Shown: piece by piece, positions 7,259-38,694 of the stretch
How positions within the stretch are numbered: position 1 is the stretch's first letter
Layout of the letters: each line of letters begins with the position of its first letter
Source: a virus
DNA: 64,000 nt
Direction: 5' to 3' (one strand)
Virus record (IMG/VR): IMGVR_UViG_3300045988_165036
Span: 1-64,000 of that record
The notes under the pieces: model-generated
The model's input: only the letters and a program-made list of their open reading frames with translations
What the model was told of the DNA's origin: nothing
Databases searched by the model: none
Program-made: the position numbers and the translations under genes

Positions 7259-7281
7259 TTCTATAAGGAGGTAAAATAATT

Positions 7282-8367: not shown

Positions 8368-8396
8368 TTTAGCGGCATAAAATTTTAAAAAATTAC

Positions 8397-8425: not shown

Positions 8426-8522
8426 ATAATAAACCGGGACAGGGAGTAGCTACCTTTTCAGTTGCCGCAACAACTGAATTACCGGTTAATTATAAATAAT
8501 GTGCGCTTTGCGGAGGTGCTAT

Positions 8523-10298
8523 ATGAAAAGAGTAAACATTGATAAAGACTGGCTATACGATCAATATATAGTTCAAAACAAAAATATCGAAGATATCGCC
8601 GAAGAACTTGGTACAGGACGAAAACCCATTATGCGTTCTTTAAAAGAGTTTGGAATCAAGAAAAATATTTCTGACATTGTTGAAAAGAGAAAATCTACAA
8701 ACATTCAAAAATATGGTTGCGTTTCTCCGATGCAAAACGAAGAAGTTCGCCAAAGGATTAAACAAACCAATTTAGAACGATACGGGTCTGAAAATCCAAT
8801 GGAGTGCGCTGAAATACGTCAAAAGCTAAAAGAAACAAATATAGAAAAGTATGGTGTTGATACCGTGCTTAGACTAAAAGAGTTTCGAAAAGACGAGAAA
8901 ATTTACGATATATCGAAAGAAGATTTGATTCATTATTATATTGATGAAAATCTAACGATTGATGATGTCGCAAAAATATTCGGATGCTCTAAGGGCATAG
9001 TTGATAAGCGTATTGCCGAGTACGAGATTAAAAAGCCGAGAAAACTGATAGATGATACAATCGAACGAACAAATATGGCAAAATACGGCGTAAAAACAAC
9101 GGCTGTTTTGCCAGAGGTTGTAGAAAAACGTATCGCAACGAACATCAAAAGATATGGGGATAAAAACCCGGCAACTACAGAAGGCGTTAAGGCAAAGATG
9201 AAAAATACTTGTCGTGAGAAATATGGGGTCGAATATTCTTTGGCGAATCCATCTATAAGGGAAAAAGCAAAAGAAACATTGAGACGTAAGTATCATCGCG
9301 AAAATGGAGGACAGGTCCACCTGTCTGAAGAAAGTATTCGAATTATGTCTTCGAGAGAAACACTGCGCGAATTTATGATTGCCAATAATATTCATACAGT
9401 TCGCGAATTGACAATTGCTCTCGGTCGCGGAAGTATGCCAAAGGTTGGAGATTATCTGCACAAGTATGACTCGTGGGACTTGATTAATCCCAAAGAAAGT
9501 TATCAAGAGTTTGAAATCATTTCTTTTGTTAGAGGGCTCGGCGTGTCATGTTATAAAGACAAAAGTGTTTTGAAGCCATACGAAGTTGATTGTTATTGCC
9601 CGGAATATAAGATTGGCATTGAGTTTAATGGAACTTTTTGGCATTCTAATCTTCATAAAGAAAAAGATTATCATATAAAGAAATCCAAACTTGCTGAACA
9701 GAAAGGGATTCGTCTAATTCATATTTATGAAAGTGAATGGGAAGACCCTAGAACAAGACCAATTCTTGAATCAATGTTGAAAATTGCTTTTGGGAAGGTA
9801 GAGACTCGAATTTATGCAAGAAATTGTGAAATTCGTGAAATTACCAACAAAGAAGCAAGACCATTTAATGAAGCCAACCATTTGCAGGGGCACAGAAATG
9901 CGCAAATAACATACGGCCTTTTTTATGAAGACAAGCTCGTGCAGCTTATGAGTTTTTCCAGACATAAAAAATATAGGTGGGAAATTATTCGTGGCTGTCC
10001 AGGGTCAAATAATGTTGTTGTGGGCGGTGTATCAAAACTATTTAAACATTTTGTCAGAGAGAATAACCCAGATCAAGTATTTTCATATGCAGACTTTAAT
10101 AAGTTTGATGGTGAGGGTTATCTTGCTTTGGGCATGAAGTTTATTGGGTATTCTGGACCCGATTTACGATGGGTGATAAATTGGAAAGTTGTTCCTCGTT
10201 GCCCGTCTCGTCACAAAGAATATAAAGAATCAGCAGATGCCATCATATGGGGCGCTGGTTCTAAAAAGTTTTTGTGGACAAAACCAGAAACTAAATAA
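8523..10298 (+). CDS. Free-standing homing-endonuclease-like protein (HTH + KYG repeats + Vsr/PD-(D/E)xK-like core + C-terminal NHLQG domain)
   Basis: ATG 8523 follows GGAGG. Repeats of the form (K/R)YG..NP....(V/I)R.K.K.T occur at least 6 times. The core reads YEVDCYCPEYKIGIEFNGTFWHS...IRLIHIYESEWED. The C-terminal domain has ...ARPFNEANHLQGH...VVGGVSKLFKHF...SYADFNKFDGEGY. The gene is inserted between capsid and head-completion genes. Confidence 0.55.
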   Translation: MKRVNIDKDWLYDQYIVQNKNIEDIAEELGTGRKPIMRSLKEFGIKKNISDIVEKRKSTNIQKYGCVSPMQNEEVRQRIKQTNLERYGSENPMECAEIRQKLKETNIEKYGVDTVLRLKEFRKDEKIYDISKEDLIHYYIDENLTIDDVAKIFGCSKGIVDKRIAEYEIKKPRKLIDDTIERTNMAKYGVKTTAVLPEVVEKRIATNIKRYGDKNPATTEGVKAKMKNTCREKYGVEYSLANPSIREKAKETLRRKYHRENGGQVHLSEESIRIMSSRETLREFMIANNIHTVRELTIALGRGSMPKVGDYLHKYDSWDLINPKESYQEFEIISFVRGLGVSCYKDKSVLKPYEVDCYCPEYKIGIEFNGTFWHSNLHKEKDYHIKKSKLAEQKGIRLIHIYESEWEDPRTRPILESMLKIAFGKVETRIYARNCEIREITNKEARPFNEANHLQGHRNAQITYGLFYEDKLVQLMSFSRHKKYRWEIIRGCPGSNNVVVGGVSKLFKHFVRENNPDQVFSYADFNKFDGEGYLALGMKFIGYSGPDLRWVINWKVVPRCPSRHKEYKESADAIIWGAGSKKFLWTKPETK

Positions 10299-10364
10299 AA
10301 AAACGACCAATTTTATGGTAGTTTTTTATATATTAATTTTGTTTTAAAAGGAGTTATAAAAGAT

Positions 10365-11084
10365 ATGGCAAATGTTAAGAAAAATGTTGAAACCGAAGAT
10401 GTCATGGCGTCCGATGAGGTTGTCGCCGAACAGAAAACAAAAACCTCGGCGCCGTCCGTTGATCAATCGGATGAGATTGCCGCACTCAAGGCACAAATTG
10501 AGATGCTGACCAAAATGATGGCGGCGGGACTTGGAGCACAAGCTCCCGCCGCCGCACAGTCGAGCTCTCTTCTTGAAGAAGTCAAGGTGGTTCATCTTCG
10601 TGAGTGCCTTCCAGGAACGACAACTCACATTCATTTGAGTAACCGAGATCTTGATTTTGCTTCTTTCGGTGCTACGCTTACGCTTGATCGTCGTCAAGCT
10701 GAAGAGCTTGCCGGAGGAACGACGAAAAAGTTTTTTGATCGAGGGGTTATTGCTTTTGGAGAAGGTAGCGAAGAGCTTGCAAAAATGCTTGGTGTTAAAT
10801 CCATTCGAGATTATGAATTTATGGGATCTGACTTTGTTAAAAGACTTGGAACTATGAATGTATATGAACTTGAAGACATTTATAACAAGCTTTGCGATGG
10901 ACTTCGTGGTTTTATTATTGAATATTTTAAGCGCAAGATTCTCGAAAAAGATCCGGCGTTTAACGACATTCACAAAATTGAGGTTCTCAACAGACTTAGC
11001 GATGGTGCCATGTCTGATGTTATCCTTGACAGACAGCGCGACGCGGCCAATGAGATCGCGAAGAAAAGCGCTGAGAATAAATAA
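10365..11084 (+). CDS. Hypothetical structural-module protein
   Basis: 239-aa ORF with RBS AAGGAG and an Ala/Gln-rich linker. Confidence 0.45.
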   Translation: MANVKKNVETEDVMASDEVVAEQKTKTSAPSVDQSDEIAALKAQIEMLTKMMAAGLGAQAPAAAQSSSLLEEVKVVHLRECLPGTTTHIHLSNRDLDFASFGATLTLDRRQAEELAGGTTKKFFDRGVIAFGEGSEELAKMLGVKSIRDYEFMGSDFVKRLGTMNVYELEDIYNKLCDGLRGFIIEYFKRKILEKDPAFNDIHKIEVLNRLSDGAMSDVILDRQRDAANEIAKKSAENK

Positions 11085-11107
11085 TTAAAGAAAGGGGTCG
11101 TCGTATT

Positions 11108-11806
11108 ATGGCCTTAACTTTTAAATCCATATATGAGAAAGCGATCAACTTGTTTGACGATCCCATCATTCAGCGAGCTTATGTTGAAGATACGGTGCGT
11201 TGGGAAAGACTGATGTACCCGCATCTGGAAAACGGGATTAACCAATTTTCAAACCCAACAAAGATCGCTTATTTGCTCGTTGATCAGAAATTGCCGTCTG
11301 GTCAGGTTGAGATATTTGACGGTAATGGAACTGCTGTTTATAACGTGAGCGCGGACTTCGTCCCCGAAGAGGGGGCGGAGTTTTCGTTCCGTATTGGAAC
11401 GCAGTATGACCCTGCCGCTAAATACGAAAACGGTGTTGTTACTTTTTCTCGCGAAGTTCCTACTGGTTCAAAGTGTGGAGTTGAGTGGTATTCTCCTGGT
11501 CAGTTCAATACCGACTTTAAAGAAGCCGCAAGTTCTACTACGTCGGCGCCCGTTATTGCATATAAAGTGAGAGATATTTTGGCATATTCGCTTGTTCTTG
11601 CGTGGGCGACCAATGAAAAGAACTTTATGTTGGATATCAGGAACATTTTAACAGATACGGACTTCAAAATTTATTCGAATGCGAACAGTGTTCGGGCAAA
11701 GGTTGAGTGGACGAATCAGTTAAAATTTCAACTTGACAGTCTGACAACAAAACTTGCGTGGGATGTGGTCTCTCGTAAATATCACGGAGGTAATTACTAT
11801 GGATGA
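11108..11806 (+). CDS. Hypothetical head-tail joining region protein
   Basis: 232-aa ORF with RBS GAAAGGGG. The call rests on position only. Confidence 0.4.
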   Translation: MALTFKSIYEKAINLFDDPIIQRAYVEDTVRWERLMYPHLENGINQFSNPTKIAYLLVDQKLPSGQVEIFDGNGTAVYNVSADFVPEEGAEFSFRIGTQYDPAAKYENGVVTFSREVPTGSKCGVEWYSPGQFNTDFKEAASSTTSAPVIAYKVRDILAYSLVLAWATNEKNFMLDIRNILTDTDFKIYSNANSVRAKVEWTNQLKFQLDSLTTKLAWDVVSRKYHGGNYYG

Positions 11807-21790: not shown

Positions 21791-21872
21791 AAATGAAAAG
21801 TAAACTGAACAAATGCCTTTCCGGTGGGTGGTTAAACCGGATTTTATAACAATAGAAAGGAGGTCCTCGAAA

Positions 21873-22904
21873 ATGGGGAAACGATCGACAGTATATCATA
21901 ATCTGGTCACTCCAGAAAAGTGGGACAAAATTAATGAAAAAAATAAAAATCTAATCAATGAATTTACAGATTATTTGCGTTCTGCGAATAAATCTCCCGC
22001 AACAATTAAGCAGTACGAAGCACAACTGCACACATTTTTTGTGTTCGTGCTGGAAAGATGCGAGAACAAATTTTTTGTTGATCTAAAAAAGAGAGAATTT
22101 GTTAAATATTTTGGATATTTGACAAACGAATTGGAGGTTTCTCCGAACAGGATTTGTTCGATGAGAGCCGTCCTTTCAAGTTTGTCTAATTTTATTGAAA
22201 GAATTTTAGACGAAGATTACCCGCAATTCCGTAATCTTGTAAAAGTTCTGGAACCTGTGGATAAGGAATTGGTTCGTGAACGTCCTGCTCTGACGATGGA
22301 TCAGATTAAAGACTGTCTCAAAAAGCTCGAAGCAGATAAAAAGTATCAGGTTGCTTGTTGCCTTGCTGTTCTTGCGGCAAGTGGAATGCGTAAAAGCGAA
22401 GTAATCCAGATGAAGATGGAATATTTCGAAAAAGACAGGTTGATTTATAACGGGCTTGCTTATGAAACAGATAAAATCCGAACAAAAGGTCGTGGAAAAG
22501 CCGGGAAAGTCGTAACAAGAATTGTGTTTCGTAATCTCGTTGATGTTGATCATTATATCGACTTATGGCGAAAAAAGCGAGAGGAACTTGGCATTAAAGA
22601 CGAATATATGTTTGTGGTTTACCACGATGGTTCGTATGAACAGGCAACGCAGGCGACAATTAATTCGTTTGCTAGAACAATTGCGAAATATCTTGGTGAA
22701 GACTTTTTCGTTCACAACGTTCGGCACACGACATCGACTGCTCTTGAGCTTGCTGGATACCCGATTGATGTTGTGCAGACAATTTTTCGCTGGGCAGATC
22801 CGAAGATGGTTAAATATTATTCAAATATTAGTGACACGCAGTCTCTGGAAAATTTCTTCGCAGGAATGAGCGAGGAAGAAAATAAAAAAGAAAGTGAGGA
22901 ATGA
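21873..22904 (+). CDS. Tyrosine recombinase / integrase family protein
   Basis: ATG 21873 follows AAAGGAGG. SAM-like N-terminal domain (SPATIKQYEAQLHTFF). Catalytic motifs read ...AASGMRKSEVIQM (Arg), HNVRHTTSTAL (HxxR) and a C-terminal ...MVKYY (Tyr). Confidence 0.75.
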   Translation: MGKRSTVYHNLVTPEKWDKINEKNKNLINEFTDYLRSANKSPATIKQYEAQLHTFFVFVLERCENKFFVDLKKREFVKYFGYLTNELEVSPNRICSMRAVLSSLSNFIERILDEDYPQFRNLVKVLEPVDKELVRERPALTMDQIKDCLKKLEADKKYQVACCLAVLAASGMRKSEVIQMKMEYFEKDRLIYNGLAYETDKIRTKGRGKAGKVVTRIVFRNLVDVDHYIDLWRKKREELGIKDEYMFVVYHDGSYEQATQATINSFARTIAKYLGEDFFVHNVRHTTSTALELAGYPIDVVQTIFRWADPKMVKYYSNISDTQSLENFFAGMSEEENKKESEE

Positions 22905-24130: not shown

Positions 24131-27100
24131 GTGGAAGATATGAACCTTTTTGGTGGATTTCAGACCGCTCTTTCTGGGGCTGGAAGCGGATTAATCTCTG
24201 CTTCTAAAGATGTTGAATCGTATATTCAGAACATATATCAAGACGCGGCCGACAATATTTCCGAGAGAAAAAAACTTTTTAAAAACTTAGTAGAAAAAAT
24301 TGGTATTGCCGAAGACAAAGGAATTAAGAGCATTCTTGATAGATATGAAGAGTTCGAAAAAGAAGCGATTGCGTTGTCGTCGAAAGAGGAAAATAGAAAT
24401 CAAAAAAAATATTCAGAAACACTACAACAGATTAGTTTAATTCAAGGAACAGTGCAGAAGGCTTTAAATCAAGCTTTCAAAAGCGCAAGCGAGACAACGA
24501 GGAGTCTTATTGATCAGATCCATAGATCCTCAACTTTTCAGGTTGAGGATCTTTTAAAACAGGCTAAAACTTTTGATATTTCTGATGCAAATTTAAAAAA
24601 AATAGAAGAAACCGCTAGAAAAGAAATTGAAAAAAATCAACAAAAAGCATTTAGAGAAACGGCAAAAGCTTTTAGAAAAATAACCGGTCAACAATTTGAG
24701 ACAATTTTAAAAACCGGAGCGGAAGGAGTTATTAAATCCGCACTTGATACCATTTCTGCAAAGTATGGATTTTCCGAAAGTGATTTGTTAAAAATGGTTG
24801 CTCCTGCTTTTCAAAGGGCTACAAAAATGGCCGGAAGCGGAAAACTGAAGGCAATAGATCCGAGCAAAATAACCGGTTCGTTTGGGAAATTAGCATCCCA
24901 AAGAATTAGCGCAATTTATTCTGGACACCCGAAAGATACAGCGAAAGCATTGCAGGAGCTTGTTGGGGCGCGGGAAGAAATTTTTGATTTTGGTAATGAA
25001 ATAGCAAAACTTTCCGATATTGCTAAAACAGTTGGAAAAAAAATTGCCGTTAATATTGATGAAGCTACAAAAGAATTACAGATTGGATTTTACGATGCCA
25101 AAAACGTTCCGCAAAAACTAAAAGGCGGAGCGTGGGACATGTCGAAAATGCCATCATTTAAATTCTCCGCGCAAAGATTAAAAGAGGGACTGCTTTCTCG
25201 AAGCGGAATGACAACTCCAAATGATTTGGTTATGAAGTTCGACAAAGACACTCAAAAGACTGTCGTTACAACTACTGCAAATTTAATTATGGATGGTGTT
25301 GCCGATGTATTAAGATCTGCTAGTGGTGTCTCGGATAAAGACCTTATGTATCGTCTTAGAAAAGCGGTTGATAGGGGCTATAGAGGAGCGTCTTCTGAGT
25401 CGACTAAGTTTTTTGATAAAGAAATTAATGATTTAAGAGACGGAATCAGTTCTGGTCGAATTATGAATATGGGCGGTCGGATTAATGTTGTTCCTGCGTT
25501 TTTTGATATCTTGAAAGCAATCAAAAAGGCGAACATAGACGTCGGAACAACCTCTGAGCACTATGATGAAAAAGTATTTCGAGATTTATTTAGCGTTATT
25601 AATGCGTGGAGGGTTGCTGGGAGAAGCGTTGAAAAGCTAAAGTCTGATGCGACATACGGTTATTTATTTAAAGACAATGGTATTGCAAATATGATCAAGA
25701 TGGTCATAGATCCAATATCTAGACTTTCTCTGGCAGTCGGACAAGGGTCGACCGCTCAAATAAACAACGGATATATTCAACTTGCGGCCAACTGGCAAAG
25801 AGCGGCTTCGTTTTTGCCCGGGGATACGTCAAAGCATTTATCTCAAACGCAGAATTATGAAATACCCCGTGGAGGAATGAGGGGTTCTTTACCGTCTACA
25901 AAAATTAGAACAGCAGCAGGACAGGCTCTTGGATTTAATTATGACGCTCTTTCTGAAAGGCTATATAACATTCAATATATAACAGAAGAAAAGTTGTTAG
26001 AAGAGTGGGATAAATGGCTCGAGTCAGAAAGCGGAAAAGAATATTTAGGACAAGGTGGTTCCAAAATCCTACCGGGATTGCATGACAGTGCATCAATATA
26101 TAGAAGTGATTTAATAAATGATTTTATAACTCAAAGATATAGATATAAAAGAGTTAGCGCCAACGATTGGTATGAAACCCAAAGAAAGCTCGGATTGTCT
26201 GGCAAGTTGTCTGGTTTGTCTGAAAATCAAGTAGCGGCAACCATCGTGTCTAATATTATGGGCGTTGATATCAAAAACATAGAAGATCTTAAATGGGGGC
26301 AAATGTCTGGAGACGACGGGAGCGTTGATCCCACGAGAGATTTTGTCTTTAATTTCAACGAAATTGTGGACTGGATGGGGAACCCAAAGGGTCTTGGAGC
26401 TGAAACAGGAACTCGTTCTGCAATGATGCCCATCGTCAGTAAGTTTATAACAGAAAGATTTGGTCAAAATATTCATATGCTTCGGCTTGCTGAAGAAATG
26501 GGATCCAATGATTTTGGAGGTATGATCGTTGGCGCCATTCAACATGTGCTTGTTAATGGGAAGTCGGCAAAAGATGTTGTGTCTGCATTAAAAGGAACCT
26601 CTTTGGAGGGAATGTTTGAAGCAGATGGAGATAATCTGATTTTGTCTTCAACTATGGACAAAACCAGAGCTCTTGATTTAAATAAAGTTCAAAGAGAGCT
26701 CGAATCAAGTCTTGGAATCCAATTCAAGGAAGGGCTTGTTATTTCGGAAGCTGTAAACGCTGCACACGATTATTTTTATCAAAAAGATACAAAGTATGGG
26801 CAAAGAGAACTTGAGGCAATGCGCAGAACTATTTCGACTGCAAGTTCTATAAATAAAGATATTGACTTTACAGAATTTTTATCACACGAAGAATCAACCG
26901 TTGTTAGCAAGGGTGCTGAAGATGCTAAAAAGATGAGAGATTCTTATGCAAAAGCCTTTAGAGCATCTTTTGGATCAAACGAATTACAAGATGAAGTAAA
27001 AGATATTACGGAAGAATTTCTCGGAAAAGATACAACTTTCGCTTTCAATCAAGAGTCAGATCTTGGGTTAGTTGATGCAGAAAGTTTTGCCAATTCAGCA

Positions 27101-30100
27101 TTAGCTAATATTTATGAACAAATTTCACAAAGTGGAGCTGGGTTTGGTAGAATATCTTTGCCGAAAGGATTTAAACCAATTAAGCATACAGATGGATTTG
27201 GTAAAGAGTGGTCAATGTCAAGCATTGTAGTTCCAGCAAGAGAACACGAGACTGAAACAGCCTTTTTTGATGCTGCTCATCAAACCGGAATTTCTCTTTC
27301 TGAATTTGACATATCTCTTAATAGGGTTATACGTTCAATCGCAGAATATAATGATATAATGGGAGATTCCAAAAAGAGTGAAGAAGATAGGGAATATATT
27401 ACAAATAAGCTTAATAGAGATCTTGAAAATTTTTATAGAGACAATTATGCTTATTTTACCAGTAAAGATTCTCCTATCGCTCAAGATATATACTATAATC
27501 GAGTTAGAGGATCTCATTCTTTTATGGCCGCAGGTCTTAGCGAAGCTCAAAGAGATAAACTTTTAAAAAGCTCGAATCCAGATGAAAAAAAACGTCAAGA
27601 TGAAAAAGAGCTCGGAAAGATTTTAGATGAGAGTTATTTAGTTGGCCCGGAGGCAATGAGAAAATTAATCGGGGATGACATTAAAGATATTAAGGCTCAA
27701 TATGAATATATTTTTGGCGAAAAAGCATCTAAAAAAATGAGTAAAGATGAGATGCTTGATAAAATTATTGAAGCTATGACCGTCGAAAATATTGGGACAG
27801 ATGTCTTCAAAAAAAGAGGATTATTTTCTAAAGATCTTCGTTTCCCGTCTATTCAAGGACAAGACGTTCGCTATATTAGAGGTTTTGTAACGAATGCGCT
27901 TCGAGGATCTCTTGATACTGCTTATATGGGAAGCGCTGCCGCCGCAGCAAACCGTACTGACTATGATAGAGATCACGTAAATTTGCTTTCTGCTATTAGA
28001 AATATTGGCGGCGTTAAAAATGTCGAGGAATATTTGAAAGCTGCGGAAGCTGTTACTCGTCTTCATGAAGCAGTTTCTGCAAATATTAGAGATGTTAGGG
28101 CTGCAAATAAGGGGCGGATAAGTGATAAAATCGAGCTTTTTAAAGATGTAAATGTAACAGATGAGGATTTGTCACGTATTGCATCGGTAGCGGCATTAAG
28201 AAACCGGGGACAAATCGGTCTCCTGTCATCACAAGCAACGGAAATGAGAAATTTCCTTTCTAGTAAAGGATTTGACGAGATGCAGTCTGGTGATGCTCCG
28301 GCTGGATTAGGACAGCTTGTTCGTTATGCTTTTGAAAAAGCAGAACAAGATGCGATTTCTTATAAGCACGTTATTAAGAGATTATCTTCCGAAAAATTTA
28401 AGAGTTATGGGATTACCGCAGAAGCGGCGATGGCGGAAGATAGAAAAAAATATATCGAAGAACTTGGCGGAGATGTTGTTGTAGACGAGCTATTAAAACG
28501 CAGAGAGGAGCTTGAAAAACAATATAAGAACAAAGGCGGAATGCCTCTGCCAAGCGAATTGATAAATGACTTTGATGCTAAAGCTGTAAACTTGAATTTA
28601 AATAGGCTCAAATATGGCAGAGATACGCGAATTCTTAATGCAAATGACGAAGAAGTAATGCGAGCAAAGCTTGCAGCCACTACATCCCTTGAACAAGCAG
28701 TTGCTAAGGCATGGGAAAGAGATGGAACGGGTTATAAAAAAACTTCGGATTATTTTAGAGCGCTTAAAGAACTTGGAATATTTGGAGACCAAATAGAGGG
28801 AGTTCCTTTTATTCAAGCCTTAACTCAAGCAACCGCGAGTGGCGGAGAAGATTTTGAAAAAAGAATTAGAAATATTGTAAATGCAAAAAAATACAATGTT
28901 GATGTTGACGCCTTATTAATGAAGCGAGATACGAGTGGCAATTTTGTTTCAACAAGTGGTCTTGCTCAAATGCCATTTGAAATGTTGATGGACATCATTG
29001 ATATGGTTGAGGCTCCGTTCGCAACAAAAGGAAAAACCCTATTATCTCAAGCCCTTATTTCTGCAAATAGAACTCTCGGGGATGAATCTCAAAGTGATTA
29101 TGCTATCGGTAAATTTTTAAAAGCTGGCAATATAGAGGGCAAAACTCCTCAAAAAACGGTTAAAAGTGATGTGCGAGAAAAGGTTGATAATGCAAAAAAA
29201 AGAGCAATTGAAGGGAAAACTGGGAAGTCTAATGTTGATAAATATTTAACAGCGCTTGCATTAAGTGGAGCATCTGATGATGAATTAATAGCTGCGGCAA
29301 AAAACGTGCAAACTGCCGAGCAAGCCAGGTCTTTGATGCCGCAAGTTCAAAAAGAAATTAGTCGAAAGGCATCTGATGTTCGTGCGGGAGGCGATTTAAG
29401 TAAAGTTAATCCGGCAGCCTTGGCAAGCATGGAAGATTGGACTCTTTTTAAGGCAAAATTAAACGATCCTGGACATACTTATTCGAAAGTATTAGCAGGC
29501 GGGAAAGAACAGGTCCTTGGAAGAATCAAATCCGCCTCGCAAATGGGATCCTTCTTCCGGGGTGGCGAATATACCGATGCAATGAGGGCCCAAGACGAAG
29601 CGTTTGAAAGAGCTTTGGAAGGATATGGCGAAAGCAATTTTTCAATAAAAGATTTTATTGGAGAAAATTATACTTCACAAGATATTAAGATATTTGAAAA
29701 TCTTAGACGTAAAAAAATTGCGTCTGATTTTGGCACAATTCAACATAAAGAAATTGAAATTCTTGGCAAACTTTTAGCAAATCCTCCAAAAGGTTTAGAT
29801 GTTGATGCTTTATTGTCTTATAGTTCTGGAACGAGTTTTGAAGGAAAAATCCGTTCTGCGTTATCAGGAGATTCGGTTCTCAAAAAGGGATTTGAGGAAG
29901 ACTTAAAGGAATTAGAAGAAGAAAGAAGCAAGGCAGAAAAAAATCTTGGAAAATTTGGATATAATTCAGAAGATATTCAGAAATTTCAAAATGCTGCATT
30001 ATTTTCTACTCTTGCACAGACAAAGTTGACGAGACAACTTTGGTTAAAAAATGTTGCAAGAGAATATTCTCTTGGACTTGAAAGAGGAAATCTTTTGGGT

Positions 30101-32335
30101 GGTCAGGATTATACCGCTGGAACAATAGACCAGATTTATTACAAAGACGGTAAATTTGTTATTGGAGATTCAAAAAATAAGAGCGGTGCCGATCCGCTGT
30201 CTCAAGTTCTGCAAATTACTTATGGAGCGATGGCTCTTAAAAAGTTAATTCAAGAATATGGGAAGGCCAAAAACATCGGAGACGATGAACTTGATAAGTT
30301 CAAAAAACAATATGGAATAGAAGATAGTGCAGAGTTTACTTCAGCTATTGAAGAGGTTCTACAAAAGGGTGATCTTGATAACGCAATTTCTGGAATTATT
30401 ACAAAGTTTGACACAAGAGGAGGATATGTAAAAGCATATCAAACAGATCCACTTAAAGATGCCAAAATGGCGGATTTGTTAGATAGATATTCTAGAGATG
30501 CGTCAGCAATGACTCCCGAAGAGCGTGCTCAGATTGAAAAATATCAAGCAGAATTATATTCCAAAGAATCTCGTATCTTTGCAGATAATCCATCTGAATT
30601 ATCTATTTTTAAATATGACGAATTAATAGATAAAAGTTTTAAAGAATTTGCCAATGCTATTCAAAAAAGAGCAGAATTGCAAAAAAGACTCTTCAAACTT
30701 GAACAAGAAGGGCAAAGAGGAAGTATAGAATATGAATCAGCTCAAAAAGAAATTGACAAACTCAATGCCGGAATTCTTGCAAAAGAAGGAGAAAGATTTA
30801 TTGGCATTGGCGGATCTTATCAAAAAGAAGCTTCTGATTATGCTGATGCGTATGAAAAATCTATTGAGGCATATAAATCTGAATTTTCTTACAACGAAGC
30901 CATAAAAGGCATTTCGGAAGAGAGGAAACTCCAAAGTGAAATCTTCAAGTTAAACAAACAAAAGAGCGCTCTTGAAAAAGAAGATGCTAAAGCCAACGAA
31001 GCCACCATAAAAGAAATTGAAGAGGTTCTAAAGTCTTATCAGCAATCAATTGACTCCATTAAAGCCTATAGAGAACAGCTGAAAGCACTTTATGGCGACA
31101 AATGGGGCGAAGGTGCTGAAGACGGGAAGCAGACCAAACTGAAAGATATTGAGACAAGAGAAAAACTAACGGGGCTTCTTGGCGCAAGAGACGAAAAACG
31201 ACTTGCTGACGCGGAAACAAATTCTGCAACAAAAGAATATATTGCGCTCTTAAATCAACAGCTTCAGCTTGAACTCAAAATTAAGAGCTTTCAACGTGAC
31301 GCTGCTACCAGCAGAGGAAGACAAAAAGAACTTGACCTTCTTGCGGCAGAGGCATATAATGAGCAATTAGAGGAAACCAATAAAAACCTTGAAAAGATCG
31401 ACAAGAGCAAAGTTAAAAACATTGACTCGATCAATGCTGAAAATGAGTTAAAGCGCAATTCCGCGCTTGCCTCTCTTTATGCGAAGAAACCGTATTCTAA
31501 TATCTTCGAATATATCAAAGCAGACATTAGCAGAGCAACTCAGCGTATTGTTGATTTCGGTCTTGCAGCAAAAGTCCTTAATACGGCTCGCAAAGAGATT
31601 CAACAGGTTTATCAAAACATTCTGAAGCTCGACGAAGCGATGACCAACCTTCGTATTGTTACCGGCTCTAACACCGAACAAGCGAAGAGTATGATGAACG
31701 CTTATAATGACCTTGCGATGCAACTTGGCACGACTACGCAAGCTGTTGCACAATCTGCGGCAGAATGGTTGAGACAGGGTTATTCTGTTTCCGAAGCCAA
31801 CGAATTGATCAAGTCTTCGACTTATCTGTCTCGTCTTGGCTTTATGGATATGAATCAGTCTGTTACGGCGCTAACTTCTGTTATGAAGGGCTTCCGTATC
31901 GAAGCAACCGACTCGATGGACATCGTTGATAAGCTGACACAGCTCGACGCGAAGTATGCAACCACGGCTGGAGATATTGCTACGGCTCTTTCGAGAACCT
32001 CTGCGGTTGCTCGTGAGGCGGGTCTTGATCTCGACCAAACTGCAGCAGCGTTGACTACAATGATTGACGTGTCGCAGCAGGATGCGAGCAGTGTTGGTAA
32101 CGCTTTCAGAACGATTCTTGCGAGATACGGGAATGTTAAAGCAACTGCGTTTACTTCTTTGGTTGGCGACTCTGATGATGTTGACGACACAAATAGTTCT
32201 ATAAACGATACCGAAAAAGTACTCGGAGCGATTGGGATTAAAATCCGTTCGTCTTCGAGTGATATGCGTGACTTTGATGACGTTATGGATGAGCTCGCTG
32301 ACAAGTGGGTAACTCTTACCGACGTCGAAAAGAAT
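24131..32335 (+). CDS. Tape-measure protein, exon 1 (2,735 codons)
   Basis: GTG start 10 nt after GGAGG. The C-terminal part carries the TP901/TIGR01760-like core ...AGDIATALSRTSAVAREAGLDLDQTAAALT...GNAFRTILARYG...ELADKWVTLTDVEKN. The last 26 codons of the ORF-track ORF are read-through into the intron. Confidence 0.75.
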
Positions 32336-32637
32336 TTGAAACAAAGTTCCATTATGGAGCAATCCATAATTGCAAACCCATTGAATTGCTGGAACGCCCT
32401 TAGAGTAGTATAAACTAAAACATAGCGATGAAATATACGCAAGTGTGAATGTGGAAAATTATACTGATTGGGTAATCAGCAGCTAAGCTCCGAATAGGAG
32501 AAAGTTCAACGACTAAGTGGTGGCAAGCGCCATCCAGTGGTGGGCTCCACGAAAGTGGATGATGAGATAGTCTAATCTCATATGAAAGTATGAGGAACAA
32601 AAGTTCGTATGATTTAGCGAATCATATAAATAAAATG
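32336..32637 (+). ncRNA. Group I intron 1 in the tape-measure gene (ORF-less, 302 nt)
   Basis: The 5' exon ends in U32335 and the intron ends in G32637. P4-like CUGAUU/AAUCAG (32464-79), Q-like AAUCAGCAGC, R-like GUUCAACGACUAAGUGG (32504-20), S-like GAGAUAGUC (32564-72). P7 is GACUA/UAGUC. P3 is CCAUU(32378-82)/AGUGG(32516-20). P9 hairpin at 32577-94. P1 is weak. Confidence 0.65.
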
Positions 32638-32661
32638 GCCGTTTCAACGGCACTCGCGGGT
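32638..32661 (+). CDS. Tape-measure protein, 24-nt micro-exon (AVSTALAG)
   Basis: GCC GTT TCA ACG GCA CTC GCG GGT supplies exactly the xIAxALAG segment expected between ...EKN and VRQRN... in tape-measure proteins. It is flanked by intron-terminal G32637 and ends in U32661, which pairs in the P1 of intron 2. Confidence 0.65.
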
Positions 32662-33038
32662 AAATTTATGCCCGTGTGTGGGTTAAAATACACACAAAGA
32701 ACACATTTAATTGCAGGTAAAACCTTAGAGCCTTTTACCACAATAATCAAGAAATTAGATTATGACGGTTTAAAAACAAAAGGATTGGTAGATCTGCAAC
32801 GAAGCTCCTAAATGAATATTTCACAAGGAGAACGTTCAACGACCATCCCCCGATGAGGGGCGTATTAATTATGCTACAGGAGTACGGCGCAAATAAAGGC
32901 GTGGGTGAAAATCCCTCAAATGGAAATGGTGTGACTCGGTATGAAAATACAGGGTTAAGAAATGGTCTATTCTTGCGCGAAAACGCAAGCTGAAATTTAA
33001 TATAATAATTAGTTATTGATTTAAAAGGGGATTAAAAG

Positions 33039-33224
33039 ATGAAAGAGTATTATAACGTTTCTCAATTAAGAGTTTGCCGATATCTTTACTCACTGGGATT
33101 TGAGAAAGAAAGTTGGTTCGACAAAAACGGAAAAGAACATTGGCGATTTGAAAAAACAGATGATTTGATGATTGCTATGGATTTTTACAAAAAAATGAGA
33201 GACAAAAATAAAGTAAATAATTAA
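33039..33224 (+). CDS. Intron-encoded small protein (DUF5659-like by eye)
   Basis: 61 aa with RBS AAAAGGGG. The pattern ...CRYLYSLGFEKESWFDKNGKEHWRFEKTDDL..AMDFY resembles small Firmicutes/phage proteins of unknown function. Confidence 0.45.
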   Translation: MKEYYNVSQLRVCRYLYSLGFEKESWFDKNGKEHWRFEKTDDLMIAMDFYKKMRDKNKVNN

Positions 33225-33243
33225 AATCTTGGAGGTTTTTCAT

Positions 33244-34017
33244 ATGAAAAAATGGACAGAAGAAGAAATTGAATGGTTAAAAGAGAATTTTCCACATAAA
33301 CAATTTAGCGAAATGGAACGATATCTTAACAGATCTTGTCAAGCTATTACAAAAATGGCGCATAGATTAAAAATCAAAAGAGATGAATTGGTTTATAAAA
33401 ATTTTACAAAGGAACAGGATGAATGGTTGAGAAAGTTCTATTATGATGCGAGTTGGGAAGATCTTTTACAGAAATTTTCAAATTTATCAAAAACGCAAAT
33501 TGAGGCCCGGGCAAAATATCTGAAAATTAAAAGAAAACCAACATTTTATAAGTTCTCTAAAGAAGAAGATGAAACATTAAAAAAGTATTTTGGGAAAATT
33601 TCAACAAAAGAAGTATCCTTGCTCCTTGATGGTAGGGATGAAAAGGCGATATATCATCGCGCAAGAAAATTGGGGCTGGAAGTATATAAAATATGGACAA
33701 AAGAAAAAGACGAGTTTCTTATCAACAATTATGATAAGCTAAGAATAAGGGATCTTATGAAAGCGCTTGGCTTAAATTCTAATACACCAATTTATAATCG
33801 TATGCGAGAACTTGGTCTGCAAAATTGTGGAATTGGAAGAATTTGGAATGATGGAGATGACAGATTTTTAATAGATAATTATAATTTACTAACAAATAAA
33901 GATATTGCTTCTATATTAAAAAGAACAGAAATTGCTATAAAGAGCCGAGCAAGTAATCTTGGTATCAAAAAAGAAATAAATATGGATTGGGAAACAATAC
34001 GCCAGAGCAGTTTATAG
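33244..34017 (+). CDS. Intron-encoded protein built from five Myb/SANT-like HTH repeats, with no recognisable nuclease motif
   Basis: ATG 33244 lies 8 nt after GGAGG. Five ~48-aa repeats start WTEEEIEWLKENF, FTKEQDEWLRKFY, FSKEEDETLKKYF, WTKEKDEFLINNY and WNDGDDRFLIDNY. Each ends in a basic helix (..HRLKIKR, ..AKYLKIKRK, ..ARKLGLEV, ..MRELGLQN, ..ASNLGIKKE). Confidence 0.6.
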   Translation: MKKWTEEEIEWLKENFPHKQFSEMERYLNRSCQAITKMAHRLKIKRDELVYKNFTKEQDEWLRKFYYDASWEDLLQKFSNLSKTQIEARAKYLKIKRKPTFYKFSKEEDETLKKYFGKISTKEVSLLLDGRDEKAIYHRARKLGLEVYKIWTKEKDEFLINNYDKLRIRDLMKALGLNSNTPIYNRMRELGLQNCGIGRIWNDGDDRFLIDNYNLLTNKDIASILKRTEIAIKSRASNLGIKKEINMDWETIRQSSL

Positions 34018-34152
34018 AATTTGTTTCTAATTTTTTCCCAGAAAAATTGGAAACATTATTAAAATATATGAAAAAAACAATAAAAATAACTAATTAAAAA
34101 ATAAATTATATTAAATTTCGGGTCGGAGTTATGAACCGACTGAATTCAAAAG

Positions 34153-37100
34153 GTCAGACAGCGTAATATTTTCGGGATCTATATGGAAAATTACGACACA
34201 TACAAACAGGCAATTTCTGAAGCCGAAAAAGCCCAGGGAACCGCCGCTCGTAAAATGCAGGCGTATAATGAAAGTGTTGCGTATAGTATCAATCAGCTCT
34301 CTGCGGCATGGGAAGGATTTACGCAAAAACTTGAGGCAAGTCCGGCCGTCAAGGGTATTTATTGGATTTTGACGCAAGGAATAAAGAATCTTGATCACAT
34401 TTTGCAGTGGTTAATACCCATTATCGCAACATTTAATGCCGATAAAATCGTAAGTCTCGCTAAATTTTTGTTTCCTTTGGTGACGGCTATTCCGAAAGCG
34501 GTTGGAAATGGATTTAAAGATCGTCACGGTAATGAATTCTATGAAAATATGACTCAAAAGATGACCGCAGAAAATACCAATGCTATTGAAGAGTTAACCA
34601 ATGCGACAAAAGATAACACTGCGGCATTAAGAGGAAGAAAGTCGAAGAGCGGCGCTGGCGGAGTTGGTAAAGCAGATGAGGGGGCAACACCAAAGGGCCC
34701 CAAAACAAAACAAAAGCCATATCAAAAGTATACATCTGATGTAAGGTCTCGCATAGATAGTCTTAATTATCATATTTCTGAAGCGGAAAAACAAGGAAAT
34801 GTTTCGGACGTAGAAAAACTTAAGAAAATTAAGTCGGAAGAATTAAGAAAAATAGAAGGAAACAAACCGGAAATTATTTCTGCGTATAGAAAAGATACCA
34901 GGGATGCGACAGAATTAGCCCAAAAACAAATTAATGAAATTGACAAAAGAGTGCAAGATTCAAAGGCTAACGCCCTTATGAGAAAAGAAATTGCGGAAAA
35001 TGCCCATAAAAACGGGCAGGTACAATCGAAACTTAAAGAGAAGGACAGAAGGGCTGAAGCTTCGCAGATTCACGCGGCTGAAATGGAGGCTTCTGGAGAG
35101 CAGCAGAAGGAGCAGATATTTAAAGAAAGAAACGATAGGCTCAAAGAGATTAAAAAACGGACAAAAAAAGATTTACGAGAAGAAAATAAGAGATTAAAAC
35201 AACAGGAAGAGGAATATAATAGAGCCAATAGCACTGGGAGAGCTAAAACCAGAACAGACGTAAAAGAACTCGCCCCAGAAGAACGCGCAAATCTTGAGGC
35301 TCAAAAGAAACTGGAGCGTTCCGCTCGTCTAAAGACCGGTGTTGTTTCTGGCATTGGCGCCGGAGCCGTTCGCTTTGCAAACAAAGGATCAAGTTTCCTC
35401 GATGAGGCTATGGGTGTTTCTGGTGTCGAAGTTGACACCGGTGAAGCTCTTGCAATGGGCGTTGCTCAGGGTGCTCTAACTGGAGTTGCGACTGCGTTTA
35501 TGGGACCTGCCGGAGCAGTTCTTGCCTCAATTCTTGGAGACGTTTTGTCTTCTTTCTGGAAAAAAATTGCTCACGCAGACGAAATTGATCGTAAACAGCG
35601 TGTCGAAGATGCCAAAAAACAACTCGAAGCAATTAAAGGGATCGAAAGTTCAGTTACTGGTTTGATTGATTTAAACAAAAAAAATCAAGCGCTGTGGGAT
35701 TCTGATGAATGGAAACAATTCAACGAACAGGTTGAAACAATCAATGAAGCTCTTGAAAAATCAGAGCTCGGAGATAGAATAATCAACCTCGGCAACAGTA
35801 CACAAACCCTTTCTGAATATTTCGAAGAAGCGGCAAGAACCGGAAATAAAGATATGCTTTCTCGCGTCGAAGCGGAGAGAATTCGTTTTGAGGCTGAAAA
35901 GACATACGCTGCAGGAGAACAGGATCGTTATACCCTCCAAAAAGAGATTAACGAGAATCAAAAGAAGCTCGCAAAGCTTGATAACGACGAGATATCGAAA
36001 AGGAAAGAACTTAACGTAGCAATCAAAGCTGCGAGGTCAGAAATTAAAGACTATTCCGAAGCCCTGAAGAGGGGTTATATGCAAGCGTCGTTCTACTCTT
36101 CTGGCGTTGGAACAATGGAGTCTTATGACATTGGAAACGCAACGCTTGATAGAGTAATTATGCAAATCGCTCGAGAATGGGCAAAAGATAGTCCTGATAT
36201 TTTTGCTGGAAATCAGCTGACGAGCGATGCTCGTTTCGAAATTATTTCGTATCTGCGAGAACAGCCGGGCTATTCTTCTCTGTTTAAAAACGACACGAAG
36301 AATGTTGGAGATATGTTAACAGCAAGAGACGCAGTTGATGATTTGAGAAAATCTCTTAATATGTCTCAAAAACAATTGAAAGAGTTTGCCAATAGTAAAG
36401 ATCTTCTTAAAATTGGAAAGTCTTTCGGTTTAATTAAAGATGATATTATTGATATTAATCAATTGTCAGAAGCAGACAAATCTGCTGTTTATAAATTGAT
36501 CGATAAAATTAATCTTGTTGATGAAGACGGAATTACAACAATTGCACACGCAATGAATATGACCGTTGAAGAATTTGAAAGAGCAAATGCAGATGGAGCA
36601 TTTAACTGGCTAACAGCTGATGTTGCGATTGGTGGAATAGATAAGTTAAATGAAAAAATGCAGACATTTAACGATTTGTTATCTGCAGCATCCGAGGGTT
36701 CCCTTTTAACTTCTGAAAATCTAAACAAGATTGCAAATCAATTCCCAACATTGCTCCGTGGAGTTGACGAAGCTGGGAAATATACAAAAGATTTGAGCTC
36801 CGATAATATTCTTGATAATATAATCAGAATGATGACAGACGAAGATTCCTTACGAGAAATTTATTCTGGACTATTTTCTGGAAGCGTAGCAAAAGATTCT
36901 GAAATCTGGAATAATTTTATGACCCTTGGAAAAGGAAGCGAAATTGCTAATTCCAATCTTTCTGAAGAGATTAAAGAGCGTATTAAAAAAGCAGGCTCTT
37001 ATTCTGATATCGTCGATATTTTTGCAATGGATAAGATGAAAGAATATAATGACGCGTTTAAAGAGTATGTTACAAGTATGTATCCAATAACTGATTTACT

Positions 37101-38694
37101 TGATGCACAAGCAAAGATTTTGGAGGAATACGGAAAATATACTCTAGAGACAGAGATTTCTAATCTTGAGTCGGTTCGAGATTCTCTTGACGATGTTAAT
37201 AAACAGCGCGAGAAGGAACTTGAACTGATTAAAGCAAAAGAAGCTCTTGAAAATGCATCAAAAGAAAAGAAGCGCATATATCGTGCTGGAGTCGGATTTG
37301 TCTATACGACAGATCAAGAAGCTGTTAAATCTGCGCAGGGAAAAGTTGACGAACTAGAAAGACAACGTGACAAAGACAATATTCAATATCAGATTGATTC
37401 GTTGCAACAGCAGAAAGAAATTCTTGAAAATATTGAAAACAACAAGCAATTAGAGTCTCTCGTTGATACCGCAGAAAGGATTCTCGGTAGCGATGGTTCG
37501 AATAATGGCATTGCCGGAATTATTACTGCCGTTAATTCAATAACTAGTGATGAATTTATAAATAAAATCAAAGAACAGGTTAAGACCGGGATTACTGAAT
37601 CAATTCAAAAAACAAACGACGAATCAAAAGAATCGGCTTACAAGAGCTATAAAGAGGCACAGTCTAGCTTAGAAGATTTTCGCAAAGAAGAATATGTGAC
37701 GCCAGAGGGAGAAAAAACAGGGTATGCAAAAGGAGATATTTTGAATAATCCAAGATCCCCATATTATTCTTCTGTTTATGACGAATATAAGTCTAAAATA
37801 AATAGCGTGAATAAATATGCTGAAAATTACAATAAGTATGTACAAGATAATTCTAAAAAAATCAGCAAAGAAAAGGCTGATGAGTCTAAGCAAAAATTCG
37901 GGTTTTTTGCTCCTGCATCGGGGTTAAAAAGAGTTATGGGAGCAAAGTCGGGAAACGTATTTGTATTCGGAATAAGCCCGAGCGTTAATCCAAATTGGGC
38001 AAGTAACGATCAATACACAGCAGGGAATTCTTCTAATATTTATATATCTAAACAAACTGATGATGGCGGTTTTGGTGGATTTGAACAATCTCCGTGGAAG
38101 GGGACGGCAGAAGAGGCAATAAATAAAGTAAAAGGACCCGCCCTAATTGTAAACAATAAAGGTGGAAAAGACTATTTAATTTATAAAGATGTTAATGGGG
38201 AAATCCATAATACTGTTGTTAGATTAAATAATGGAGACGAGTCTTTAGATGGGGAGCTGAGTTATGATGCATTTTTTAATGGGAAAGTTTTTAGTGGATC
38301 TAATGGCTTAAAGGCATTAAGAAAAATGGCTGATAATTATAATCCATTTGCTTCTGGTACTCTTTCAGCCCCTGGTGGTCGCTCCCTGATCAACGAAAAC
38401 GGTCTTGAATCCATTATTACTCCTTCTGGAACAATCACTTCTCTTCCTGCTAAATCTGGCATTGTTCCTGCCGATCTTACTCGTAACTTGTGGGCTCTTG
38501 GTGAGGTTGCCCCTAACCTTATTGCTCGTCTTGGTGGCAACAGTCTCCAGACCAACAATTCTAATTCTTCTACTGACAATTCGATCAATATTCAGAATCT
38601 TGATGCTACGTTTAATACGCAAAGCGATTTCGACGGACGTCGATTCTTAACAGATCTTCGTAATCAGGTTATCTTGACTGCAAATAATCATTAA
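34153..38694 (+). CDS. Tape-measure protein, exon 3 (1,513 aa)
   Basis: Begins GTC AGA CAG CGT... = VRQRNIFGIYMENYDTYKQAISEAEKAQGTAARKM (consensus RQxNxFxxLMxNyd). Contains hydrophobic Gly/Ala segments. The C-terminal motif GGRSLINENGLESIITPSGTITSLPAKSGIVPA is typical of tape-measure C-termini. Confidence 0.75.
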   Translation, partial: VRQRNIFGIYMENYDTYKQAISEAEKAQGTAARKMQAYNESVAYSINQLSAAWEGFTQKLEASPAVKGIYWILTQGIKNLDHILQWLIPIIATFNADKIVSLAKFLFPLVTAIPKAVGNGFKDRHGNEFYENMTQKMTAENTNAIEELTNATKDNTAALRGRKSKSGAGGVGKADEGATPKGPKTKQKPYQKYTSDVRSRIDSLNYHISEAEKQGNVSDVEKLKKIKSEELRKIEGNKPEIISAYRKDTRDATELAQKQINEIDKRVQDSKANALMRKEIAENAHKNGQVQSKLKEKDRRAEASQIHAAEMEASGEQQKEQIFKERNDRLKEIKKRTKKDLREENKRLKQQEEEYNRANSTGRAKTRTDVKELAPEERANLEAQKKLERSARLKTGVVSGIGAGAVRFANKGSSFLDEAMGVSGVEVDTGEALAMGVAQGALTGVATAFMGPAGAVLASILGDVLSSFWKKIAHADEIDRKQRVEDAKKQLEAIKGIESSVTGLIDLNKKNQALWDSDEWKQFNEQVETINEALEKSELGDRIINLGNSTQTLSEYFEEAARTGNKDMLSRVEAERIRFEAEKTYAAGEQDRYTLQKEINENQKKLAKLDNDEISKRKELNVAIKAARSEIKDYSEALKRGYMQASFYSSGVGTMESYDIGNATLDRVIMQIAREWAKDSPDIFAGNQLTSDARFEIISYLREQPGYSSLFKNDTKNVGDMLTARDAVDDLRKSLNMSQKQLKEFANSKDLLKIGKSFGLIKDDIIDINQLSEADKSAVYKLIDKINLVDEDGITTIAHAMNMTVEEFERANADGAFNWLTADVAIGGIDKLNEKMQTFNDLLSAASEGSLLTSENLNKIANQFPTLLRGVDEAGKYTKDLSSDNILDNIIRMMTDEDSLREIYSGLFSGSVAKDSEIWNNFMTLGKGSEIANSNLSEEIKERIKKAGSYSDIVDIFAMDKMKEYNDAFKEYVTSMYPITDLLDAQAKILEEYGKYTLETEISNLESVRDSLDDVNKQREKELELIKAKEALENASKEKKRIYRAGVGFVYTTDQEAVKSAQGKVDELERQRDKDNIQYQIDSLQQQKEILENIENNKQLESLVDTAERILGSDGSNNGIAGIITAVNSITSDEFINKIKEQVKTGITESIQKTNDESKESAYKSYKEAQSSLEDFRKEEYVTPEGEKTGYAKGDILNNPRSPYYSSVYDEYKSKINSVNKYAENYNKYVQDNSKKISKEKADESKQKFGFFAPASGLKRVMGAKSGNVFVFGISPSVNPNWASNDQYTAGNSSNIYISKQTDDGGFGGFEQSPWKGTAEEAINKVKGPALIVNNKGGKDYLIYKDVNGEIHNTVVRLNNGDESLDGELSYDAFFNGKVFSGSNGLKALRKMADNYNPFASGTLSAPGGRSLINENGLESIITPSGTITSLPAKSGIVPADLTRNLWALGEVAPNLIARLGGNSLQTNNSNSSTDNSINIQNLDATFNTQSDFDGRRFLTDLRNQVILTANNH

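Follow-up and report, generated by a model that had tools for sequence, protein, structure and literature searches.

The 64-kb window analysed here (positions 1 to 64,000 of IMG/VR virus record IMGVR_UViG_3300045988_165036, to which coordinates refer unless a relative is named) covers the tail and head module of an uncultivated phage and contains a tape-measure gene that appears in two parts. Both giant open reading frames (ORFs) from which the original prediction had started, 24131-32413 and 34183-38694, are present in the ORF list of the window. Up to position 32335 the first translates into ...ELADKWVTLTDVEKN, after which the same frame runs into LKQSSIMEQ... and a stop, while the frame of the second, read upstream of its own ATG, gives VRQRNIFGIYMENYD from 34153. 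When 24131-32335, 32638-32661 and 34153-38694 are joined, each piece being a multiple of 3 nucleotides (nt), the result is one 4,256-codon frame with zero internal stops, in keeping with the in-frame junctions and the product of 4,256 amino acids (aa) that had been proposed. The base identities at the four boundaries are likewise as predicted, with T (U in the RNA) at the exon ends 32335 and 32661 and G at the intron ends 32637 and 34152. We conclude with high confidence that two group I introns, 24 nt apart, split the gene within the most conserved part of its TP901-type core (Table 1). An intein, a frameshift and translational bypass were considered as other ways of joining the parts and are ruled out by stops in all frames across both inserts.

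Table 1. Features of the interrupted tape-measure gene in the window, and insertion sites in the tape-measure core of the window and its relatives
Feature	Coordinates or site	Strand	Description
Exon 1, tape-measure gene	24131..32335	+	2,735 codons from the predicted start; ends ...DVEKN, with U at 32335 (ORF list and translation)
Intron 1	32336..32637	+	302-nt group I intron (RF00028), ORF-less; terminal G at 32637
Intron 1 guide segment GAAAC	32338..32342	+	Can pair in register with micro-exon GUUUC (32641-32645) as a P10 of 5 base pairs (bp); sequence inspection
Micro-exon GCCGTTTCAACGGCACTCGCGGGT	32638..32661	+	24 nt; encodes AVSTALAG; colinear with AVATAMAG of uninterrupted homologues
Intron 2	32662..34152	+	1,491-nt group I intron; guide 32669-32676; core 32662-32989; ORFs in the P9.1 loop; terminal G at 34152
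P9.1 5' strand CTGAAATTTAATATAAT	32990..33006	+	Directly after P9; pairs with 34105-34121
61-aa ORF	33039..33224	+	Own Shine-Dalgarno sequence; weak DUF5659 match
Homing-endonuclease gene remnant, 257 aa	33244..34017	+	Five Myb/SANT-like DNA-binding repeats kept; frame ends at TAG 34015-34017
Former endonuclease C-terminal tail GNNTPEQFIEFVSNFFPEKLETLLKYMKKTIKITN	33987..34097	+	Out of frame; the intact L015 protein ends in the identical sequence
P9.1 3' strand ATTATATTAAATTTCGG	34105..34121	+	Exact complement of CTGAAATTTAATATAAT
Terminal hairpin GGUCGG/CCGACU, conserved loop AGUUAUGAA	34121..34141	+	11 nt before the 3' splice site
Exon 3, tape-measure gene	34153..38694	+	1,513 codons and stop; begins VRQRNIFGIYMENYD
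Site A	EWL/RQGY		L020, L028, L036, L040, L042, probably L079; Rfam group I, 77-83 bits
Site B	near DLTS		L039, L041, L043, L045; Rfam group I, 51.5 and 76.4 bits
Site C	near FRTIL		L036, L040, L042, L045, L074, L075; no Rfam match
Intron 1 site	N/A (residues)		Intron 1 carriers (see text); Rfam group I match
Intron 2 site	G/V		Intron 2 carriers (see text); Rfam group I match
Third site	Y/M, 30 nt after the intron 2 site		L006 only; Rfam group I, 70.1 bits

The spliced product belongs to the TP901 family, as it scores above the curated cut-offs of both TIGR01760 (122.5 bits against 28.8, over profile positions 16-318 of 349 and spanning both junctions) and PF10145 (119.9 bits against 33.2). Omission of the micro-exon lowers the TIGR01760 score to 109.6 bits, i.e., the eight codons add 13 bits, and AVSTALAG falls within the most conserved stretch of the tape-measure domain, where A113, A117 and G120 are invariant. 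In a search of a 5.8-billion-protein collection, uninterrupted homologues about 56% identical to the window protein read ...DVEQNAVATAMAGVRQRNQFLALMQNYD..., and their DVEQN-AVATAMAG-VRQRN aligns colinearly and without a gap with DVEKN/AVSTALAG/VRQRNIFGIYMENYD of the window; AVSTALAG thus fills the gap of about eight residues that had been noticed between the two ORFs, and the alignment of the spliced protein to intron-less homologues bears the proposed joining out. The cultured phage relatives of the spliced protein, from Bacillus, Lactococcus, Enterococcus and others, are about 25-27% identical and mostly annotated as tape measures, and every listed cultured-phage match spans the junction in one piece. 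A megablast search of 31500-35000 against GenBank phages gave no match. Furthermore, among database proteins, those with 97-100% identity to exon 1 likewise terminate in the read-through peptide LKQSSIMEQ... and others start at MENYD, which indicates that gene callers have split the tape-measure gene elsewhere too. About 2,400 residues (window 24131-31400) precede the recognisable tape-measure core, which therefore occupies a central position in the 4,256-aa product.

Intron 1 is matched by the Rfam group I model RF00028 (Intron_gpI) at 32326-32594 with 84.6 bits (E 4e-20 for the whole 64-kb window) over model positions 1-253 of 253, the single gathering-level Rfam match in the window and one that exceeds the gathering score of 50 bits over the full core from P1 to P9. 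The conserved splice-site U of the model aligns to 32335 and forms the pair U32335.G32346 within a P1 in which 32332-32337 pairs with 32344-32349; this helix (GAAUUU/AAGUUC, including two intron pairs) is short, and the weakness ascribed to it at the outset is real. P7 is GACUA/UAGUC, aligned to the RF00028 consensus. The core runs to 32594, well short of the 3' splice site, and is followed by two extra hairpins, GAAC/GUUC (32595-32606) and UAUGAUU/AAUCAUA (32608-32626); in the relative L004, a compensated change turns a U-A pair of the second hairpin into C-G. Since the five copies of intron 1, found at the same site in the window, L004, L006, L011 and L015, are 94-98% identical, covariation among them is scant; the site-A introns of more distant relatives share about 80% identity with the core of intron 1, and with these added 12 compensated pairs are found in P4-P6 and P9.

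Intron 2 is matched by RF00028 over the full length of the model at 32652-32989, with 48.5 bits (E 9e-11), slightly below the gathering score, in a permissive scan of the 2-kb region 32250-34300, and its homologues at the same site score 53.9-69.6 bits; in L002 (6790-8914) even the permissive scan gave no RF00028 match, though the sequence is nearly identical to the L001 copy (69.6 bits), which is probably a filter effect. Here the conserved splice-site U of the model aligns to 32661, paired as U32661.G32670, and the proposed P1 (CGCGGGU/GCCCGUG) and P7 (GACCAU/AUGGUC) are present in both the Rfam alignment and the covariation analysis. For the latter, seven homologues were aligned with the ORF-bearing loop cut out, pairs were counted on a manually curated group I structure in which the P3/P7 pseudoknot is included, and pairing partners slid by 1-3 columns served as controls. 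Over 101 pairs, 97.9% of 699 cells form standard pairs, as opposed to 33-42% in the slid controls, and about a third of the pairs (34/101) show changes on both sides, compared with 1-8 in the controls. This supports P1, P2, P3, P5 with its extensions, P6, P8, P9, P9.1 and the terminal hairpin, whereas P4 and P7 are invariant across the aligned homologues. P3 (CACAUU/GGUGUG) contains two compensated pairs, and P1 has compensatory changes at alignment columns 6/22 and 10/18, including a synonymous GCG to GCA change in the exon, compensated by a C to U change on the guide side. A P3/P7 pseudoknot with a G-C pair in P7, the predicted guanosine site, is present in both introns. Between P7 and P3', intron 2 has an insertion of 80 nt (20 nt in intron 1), which we take to be the P7.1/P7.2 position typical of subgroup IA in the Michel-Westhof scheme.

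The Rfam core of intron 2 also ends well before the 3' splice site, and the remaining sequence consists of 3' hairpins and a 1.1-kb ORF-bearing loop. This loop is closed by P9.1, a long-range helix of 16-21 bp that lies at the same place in 8/8 homologues in three sequence versions; it comprises 17 bp in the window, where the loop measures 1,098 nt (1,098-1,725 nt across homologues), and in the ORF-less intron 2 of L008 (396 nt) its two strands are adjacent. Five of the six pairs of the terminal hairpin show compensatory changes among the homologues. Finally, exon 3 opens with five bases that pair in register with the five guide positions lying 5' of the wobble G, and this P10 is likewise maintained by compensatory changes (L001 UUAGU/ACUAG, L044 UGUGU/ACACG, L008 CUAGC/GUUAG). 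Both segments are group I introns, as claimed, by their RF00028 matches, of which that of intron 2 in the window is marginal, and the covariation in intron 2 agrees with this. Among viral contigs, a scan with the terminal hairpin of intron 2 returned four already known contigs only; a metagenome scan with GTTCAACGACCATCYCC proved too generic a pattern, as of approximately 120 loci retrieved just 2 (L131 and L196) turned out to be genuine copies of intron 2.

The boundaries are further defined by natural alleles in relatives, i.e., contigs fetched for homologous proteins together with 80 IMG/VR loci. Both introns with the same micro-exon occur in L004, L011, L015 and L196, the last assigned only from its resemblance in sequence to exon 1, intron 1 and the core of intron 2; the Rfam scores in L004, L011 and L015 are 83.8-89.7 bits for intron 1 and 53.9-54.4 bits for intron 2. 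In L008 and L009, which are 97-98% identical to the window in exon 1, intron 2 is present and the intron 1 site reads AAGAAT/GCCGTT without an insert. Conversely, L006 (96% aa identity in exon 1) carries intron 1 and lacks intron 2, with ...GCACTCGCTGGC GTTAGACAG... across the junction GCTGGC/GTTAGA and an intron-less site of the type ...GCACTCGCTGGCGTTAGACAG..., and L007 (86% aa identity) has neither intron, while L001, L002, L044 and L131 (53-69% identity) have intron 2 only. Intron 1 is absent exactly at the predicted bases in L008, L009, L001, L002 and L007, as is intron 2 in L006 and L007, and neither junction can slide because the flanking bases differ. With intron-minus alleles available for each intron separately, all four boundaries are therefore fixed to the base, as the original prediction had placed them. 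The arrangement is not a twintron: the 24 nt between the introns are exon, as shown by their colinearity with the protein and by relatives that lack one intron or the other.

Compared with the window, L011, L008, L009 and L015 show 97-98% aa identity in exon 1 and 96-98% nt identity in the intron 2 core, and their exon 3 identity collapses about 180-330 nt after intron 2, so that a mosaic boundary adjoins the intron cluster. Such mosaicism is what an assembly artefact or a chimera of two phage variants might produce, but the same order of exon 1, intron 1, micro-exon and intron 2 recurs in independent contigs from different samples (L004, L011, L015 and L196) and both sets of junctions are biologically exact, which makes an artefact extremely improbable. 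As a separate observation, the tape-measure frames of L001 (9396-13142), L002 (5665-12667), L018, L045 and L075 are interrupted by numerous TAG codons in frame and by no other stop codon; several of these TAGs line up with Gln codons of the window protein, which indicates TAG-to-Gln recoding in those relatives, and the genes of the window itself are open in the standard code.

Given these structures, we propose that intron 1 recognises the final bases of exon 1 (GAAU) through P1 and may bind bases 4-8 of the micro-exon (GUUUC) in P10, and that intron 2 would bind the last seven nt of the micro-exon (CGCGGGU, bases 18-24), which form the exon strand of its P1, and the first bases of exon 3 in its P10. 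Since the guides draw on separate portions of the micro-exon, the two ribozymes could work independently of each other. Each intron would fold and leave independently by guanosine-initiated two-step transesterification with retention of the micro-exon, and the resulting mRNA would encode ...DVEKN-AVSTALAG-VRQRN.... The remote 3' splice site of intron 2 would be returned to the core by the 17-bp P9.1. In the T4 nrdD (sunY) intron, the catalytic core is said to have been found by Michel et al. in 1992 to be activated by the remote 3' splice junction; that intron presumably resembles intron 2 in having its ORF downstream of the core and a 3' splice site about 1 kb away that is returned by peripheral pairings, and presumably differs in encoding I-TevIII as opposed to a Myb-repeat/HNH-like protein.

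If the introns were to cooperate or compete, exon 1 could instead be joined directly to exon 3 to give a second isoform without AVSTALAG. Omission of 24 nt would keep the frame, and exon skipping is documented for the 23-nt exon of Twort orf142, the 34-nt exon of the Coxiella 23S rRNA and engineered Tetrahymena tandem introns with a 24-nt exon (PMC10136302). In the engineered system, however, distinct recognition sequences suppress skipping (PMC10136302), and the guides of the window introns are unrelated (GUUC vs GCCCGUG). The two introns moreover share only short core motifs (18 nt at 94%, 31 nt at 77%), and the segment to be skipped is the most conserved of the domain, with its three invariant residues. 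We therefore consider such an isoform unlikely and favour retention of the micro-exon.

Within the loop closed by P9.1 lie two ORFs (Table 1) that went unremarked in the original prediction, the larger of which is a homing-endonuclease remnant. Intron 2 of L015, L009, L001 and L002 also has the 61-aa ORF, conserved directly ahead of the endonuclease gene. The 257-aa ORF matches PHROG 323, 14101 and 1891, including the N-terminal part of an 'HNH endonuclease' PHROG, and Pfam searches with the intron ORFs gave weak Myb, GcrA and DUF5659 matches only and no endonuclease family. This second ORF is full-length, at 388-494 aa, in L015, L009 and L044, and also in L001 and L002 if TAG is read as Gln; the intact proteins have an extra C-terminal domain with invariant HH...H..FH residues (H288, H289, H344 and H348). 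Mapped against L015 and L005, the window gene is 96% identical to that of L015 up to 33981 and then lacks 313 nt, a deletion that removes the C-terminal HNH-like domain and shifts the frame, so that the endonuclease is dead in the window. With the AlphaFold model of the 97%-identical protein P0051 (mean pLDDT 82.6), Foldseek retrieved Myb-repeat DNA binders (SNAPc, Reb1 and c-Myb), the T5 SciA endonuclease (probability 0.99, E 0.05) and Cas9/Cas5 HNH; the match lengths and the His motif suggest that the Myb matches correspond to the N-terminal repeats and the nuclease matches to the C-terminal part. We hold with moderate confidence that the intact C-terminal domain is HNH-like.

Across the family, the endonuclease gene is intact in L015, L009 and L044, carries the deletion in the window, and has disappeared together with almost all ORF sequence in L008 (396 nt) and L131 (467 nt). 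In L011 (IMGVR_UViG_3300045988_172298) the P9.1 loop contains, in place of the Myb/HNH-like gene, a 372-aa TnpB (5162-6280) with the domains PF01385, PF07282 and PF12323 (OrfB_IS605, Cas12f1-like TNB and HTH). As read from these comparisons, the endonuclease ORFs follow the cycle of invasion, decay and loss expected of homing-endonuclease genes. The endonuclease, with its Myb-like repeats and, in intact relatives, its HNH-like domain, would be the likely agent that spread intron 2, whereas the window copy of intron 2, like the ORF-less intron 1, would now be a passenger that must splice for tape-measure production. Because intron 1 has no ORF and the endonuclease gene of intron 2 is broken, neither intron can home by itself from this genome. 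The order of splicing and the activity of the endonuclease are both deduced from sequence. L011 in itself presents an IStron-like arrangement within a phage tape-measure gene: IStrons are group I introns fused to an IS200/IS605 element encoding TnpB (PMC10690162), and the likeness lies in the TnpB gene in the intron 2 loop of L011 and does not extend to the window, whose introns are without TnpB and are not IStrons.

The last base of intron 2 varies among relatives. It is G in the window, L011, L015 and L131, and the same base is expected in L005, whose 3' tail is 99% identical to that of the window over the last 135 nt, whereas it is A in L008, L009, L001 (=L027), L002 (=L031) and L044. The end position of the A-ending copies is set by protein colinearity, by comparison at the DNA level with L018, whose allele lacks the intron, and by the covarying P10; P7 is unchanged in these copies, and given the supported P1 they offer no in-frame G-ending alternative. 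The only U/G-consistent alternative, a G-ending boundary with both sites shifted by 5 nt (AG-KL-QRN), was rejected, as no P1 supports the shift and as it conflicts with the synonymous variation of the Arg codon (AGA/AGG/CGT), the colinearity of L018 DNA and the covariation of P10 with five exon bases. Site-A introns may be similar in their terminal base. The hexacoral mitochondrial ND5-717 group I intron ends in A as well, yet ligated exons are found in vivo (PMC6545197); it resembles the five A-ending relatives in this respect and differs in being organellar and vertically inherited, and both introns of the window end in G. The A-ending variants provide a testable case of relaxed dependence on the terminal G in a phage intron.

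Several observations weigh against the conclusion that two functional introns split the gene. The splicing of both is itself a prediction from sequence. The window copy of intron 2 scores 1.5 bits under the RF00028 gathering score, and the Infernal check foreseen in the original prediction is accordingly positive for intron 1 and gives for intron 2 a match below the gathering threshold. P1 of intron 1 has four exon pairs only, and its P10 begins three bases into the micro-exon. Five relatives of intron 2 end in A, so that the family departs from the canonical rule, though the window copy does not. As regards the proposed agent of spread, the HNH assignment is weak, with Foldseek E-values of 0.05-1.4, and a profile search of PDB sequences with the C-terminal domain yielded nothing meaningful.

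The marginal score of intron 2 and the degenerate state of its endonuclease gene would also suit a genome that encodes two separate tape-measure proteins (24131-32413 and 34183-38694, the latter with an ATG at 34183), with a 1.8-kb spacer that holds an endonuclease cassette and intron-like RNA persisting as a non-splicing relic. However, ATG 34183 encodes the conserved Met of LM(E/Q)NYD, common to all uninterrupted homologues, and no Shine-Dalgarno sequence precedes it. The micro-exon and the 30 nt before this ATG keep AVSTALAG and VRQRNIFGIY with synonymous variation among relatives (the L015 micro-exon, for example, shows a synonymous GCA/GCG difference), and intron 2 retains compensatory changes in its core helices, P1 and P10, which would not be expected of a dead ribozyme. 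We consider two separate proteins very unlikely, and the single interrupted gene remains our preferred explanation.

The two introns are part of a larger set of insertions. A tblastn comparison with all loci located insertions at six positions of the tape-measure core, within about 210 codons (Table 1), and approximately 18 of the 80 IMG/VR loci are interrupted somewhere. The third site after the micro-exon is occupied in L006 (1256-1702; ENA XIAO16-1 scaffold_12350) by a third, different group I intron between ...FGIY and MENYD.... At site C, the inserts (at least 289 nt) start with bases complementary to those that open the following exon. On these alignments insertions concentrate in the conserved tape-measure core, a hotspot with six or more sites, of which four carry Rfam-supported group I introns and site C has no such support. 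It is conceivable, though on balance we doubt it, that in an uncultivated lineage of gut phages of about 70-170 kb this core serves as a multi-site landing pad for mobile elements (at least six sites in about 210 codons), whose endonucleases are gained, decay, are lost or are swapped for TnpB, and that the lineage includes working A-ending members of intron 2. If so, these members would be a natural exception of a kind documented so far in the coral mitochondrial intron, and the terminal A may be tolerated because a virion needs few tape-measure molecules.

Both elements of this arrangement, a micro-exon between group I introns and introns in tape-measure genes, already have close phage precedents. 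In Staphylococcus phage Twort, the gene orf142, later recognised as a tail-tube gene, contains three group I introns, the second and third of which are highly similar and flank an exon of 23 nt, and it shows exon skipping (Landthaler & Shub 1999, as cited in PMC10136302 and PMC11878797). The window gene shares with it a phage tail structural gene in which two group I introns, in both cases apparently of subgroup IA, flank a micro-exon of about 24 nt. It differs in that the Twort introns are alike and permit skipping, whereas those of the window are unrelated beyond core motifs and have different guides, and in that the Twort gene encodes the tube protein, whereas the window gene encodes the tape measure, where skipping would stay in frame. 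In tape-measure genes of prophages of the Bacillus cereus group, IA1/IA2 introns (TMP-IVS1, IVS2 and IVS3a/b) occupy three sites, with at most two per gene, and display presence/absence polymorphism, retargeting via P1, decayed endonuclease genes and a cycle of invasion, decay and loss (Tourasse & Kolsto 2008, PMC2504315). Here, too, a TP901-type tape-measure gene hosts IA introns of group I at more than one position, but no micro-exon arrangement was reported, the hosts are temperate Bacillus phages of 40-50 kb (PMC2504315), the proteins are at most 27% identical to that of the window, and the window lineage has at least six sites in about 210 codons. The supposition that two introns 24 nt apart in a phage tail gene were without precedent consequently fails on the Twort exon and the B. 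cereus introns. A further parallel is the Coxiella burnetii 23S rRNA, in which two group I introns of different subgroups flank a 34-nt exon (PMC10136302), there in a bacterial rRNA gene as opposed to a protein-coding phage gene. What is new is this gene lineage, the density of its insertion sites, two unrelated introns around an eight-codon exon and the natural set of alleles.

The known mechanism of group I splicing is unaltered by these observations, and their interest lies in population genetics and in an annotation trap. Gene callers split this tape measure into two 'genes' and spurious ORFs, and inferences on tail length or host range drawn from such calls are wrong. The relatives, with both introns, either, neither, or a third 30 nt further on, constitute a natural series for the study of two ribozymes that share a 24-nt exon, and the same relatives display the full life cycle of the endonuclease gene, from intact to deleted, lost or replaced by TnpB.

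Elsewhere in the window, a 599-aa ORF at 8499-10298 (+), located between structural genes, has strong matches to homing/HNH endonuclease PHROGs (E 4e-103); an Rfam scan over 7000-11500 found no group I intron around it, which makes this endonuclease gene look free-standing. The gene content of the window includes a portal, structural proteins, an Ig-domain major tail protein and tail fibres. A tyrosine-recombinase (integrase-like) gene at 21813-22904 (+) is embedded in the tail module, some 1.2 kb before the tape-measure gene, and L001 and L002 have the same gene at the corresponding position.

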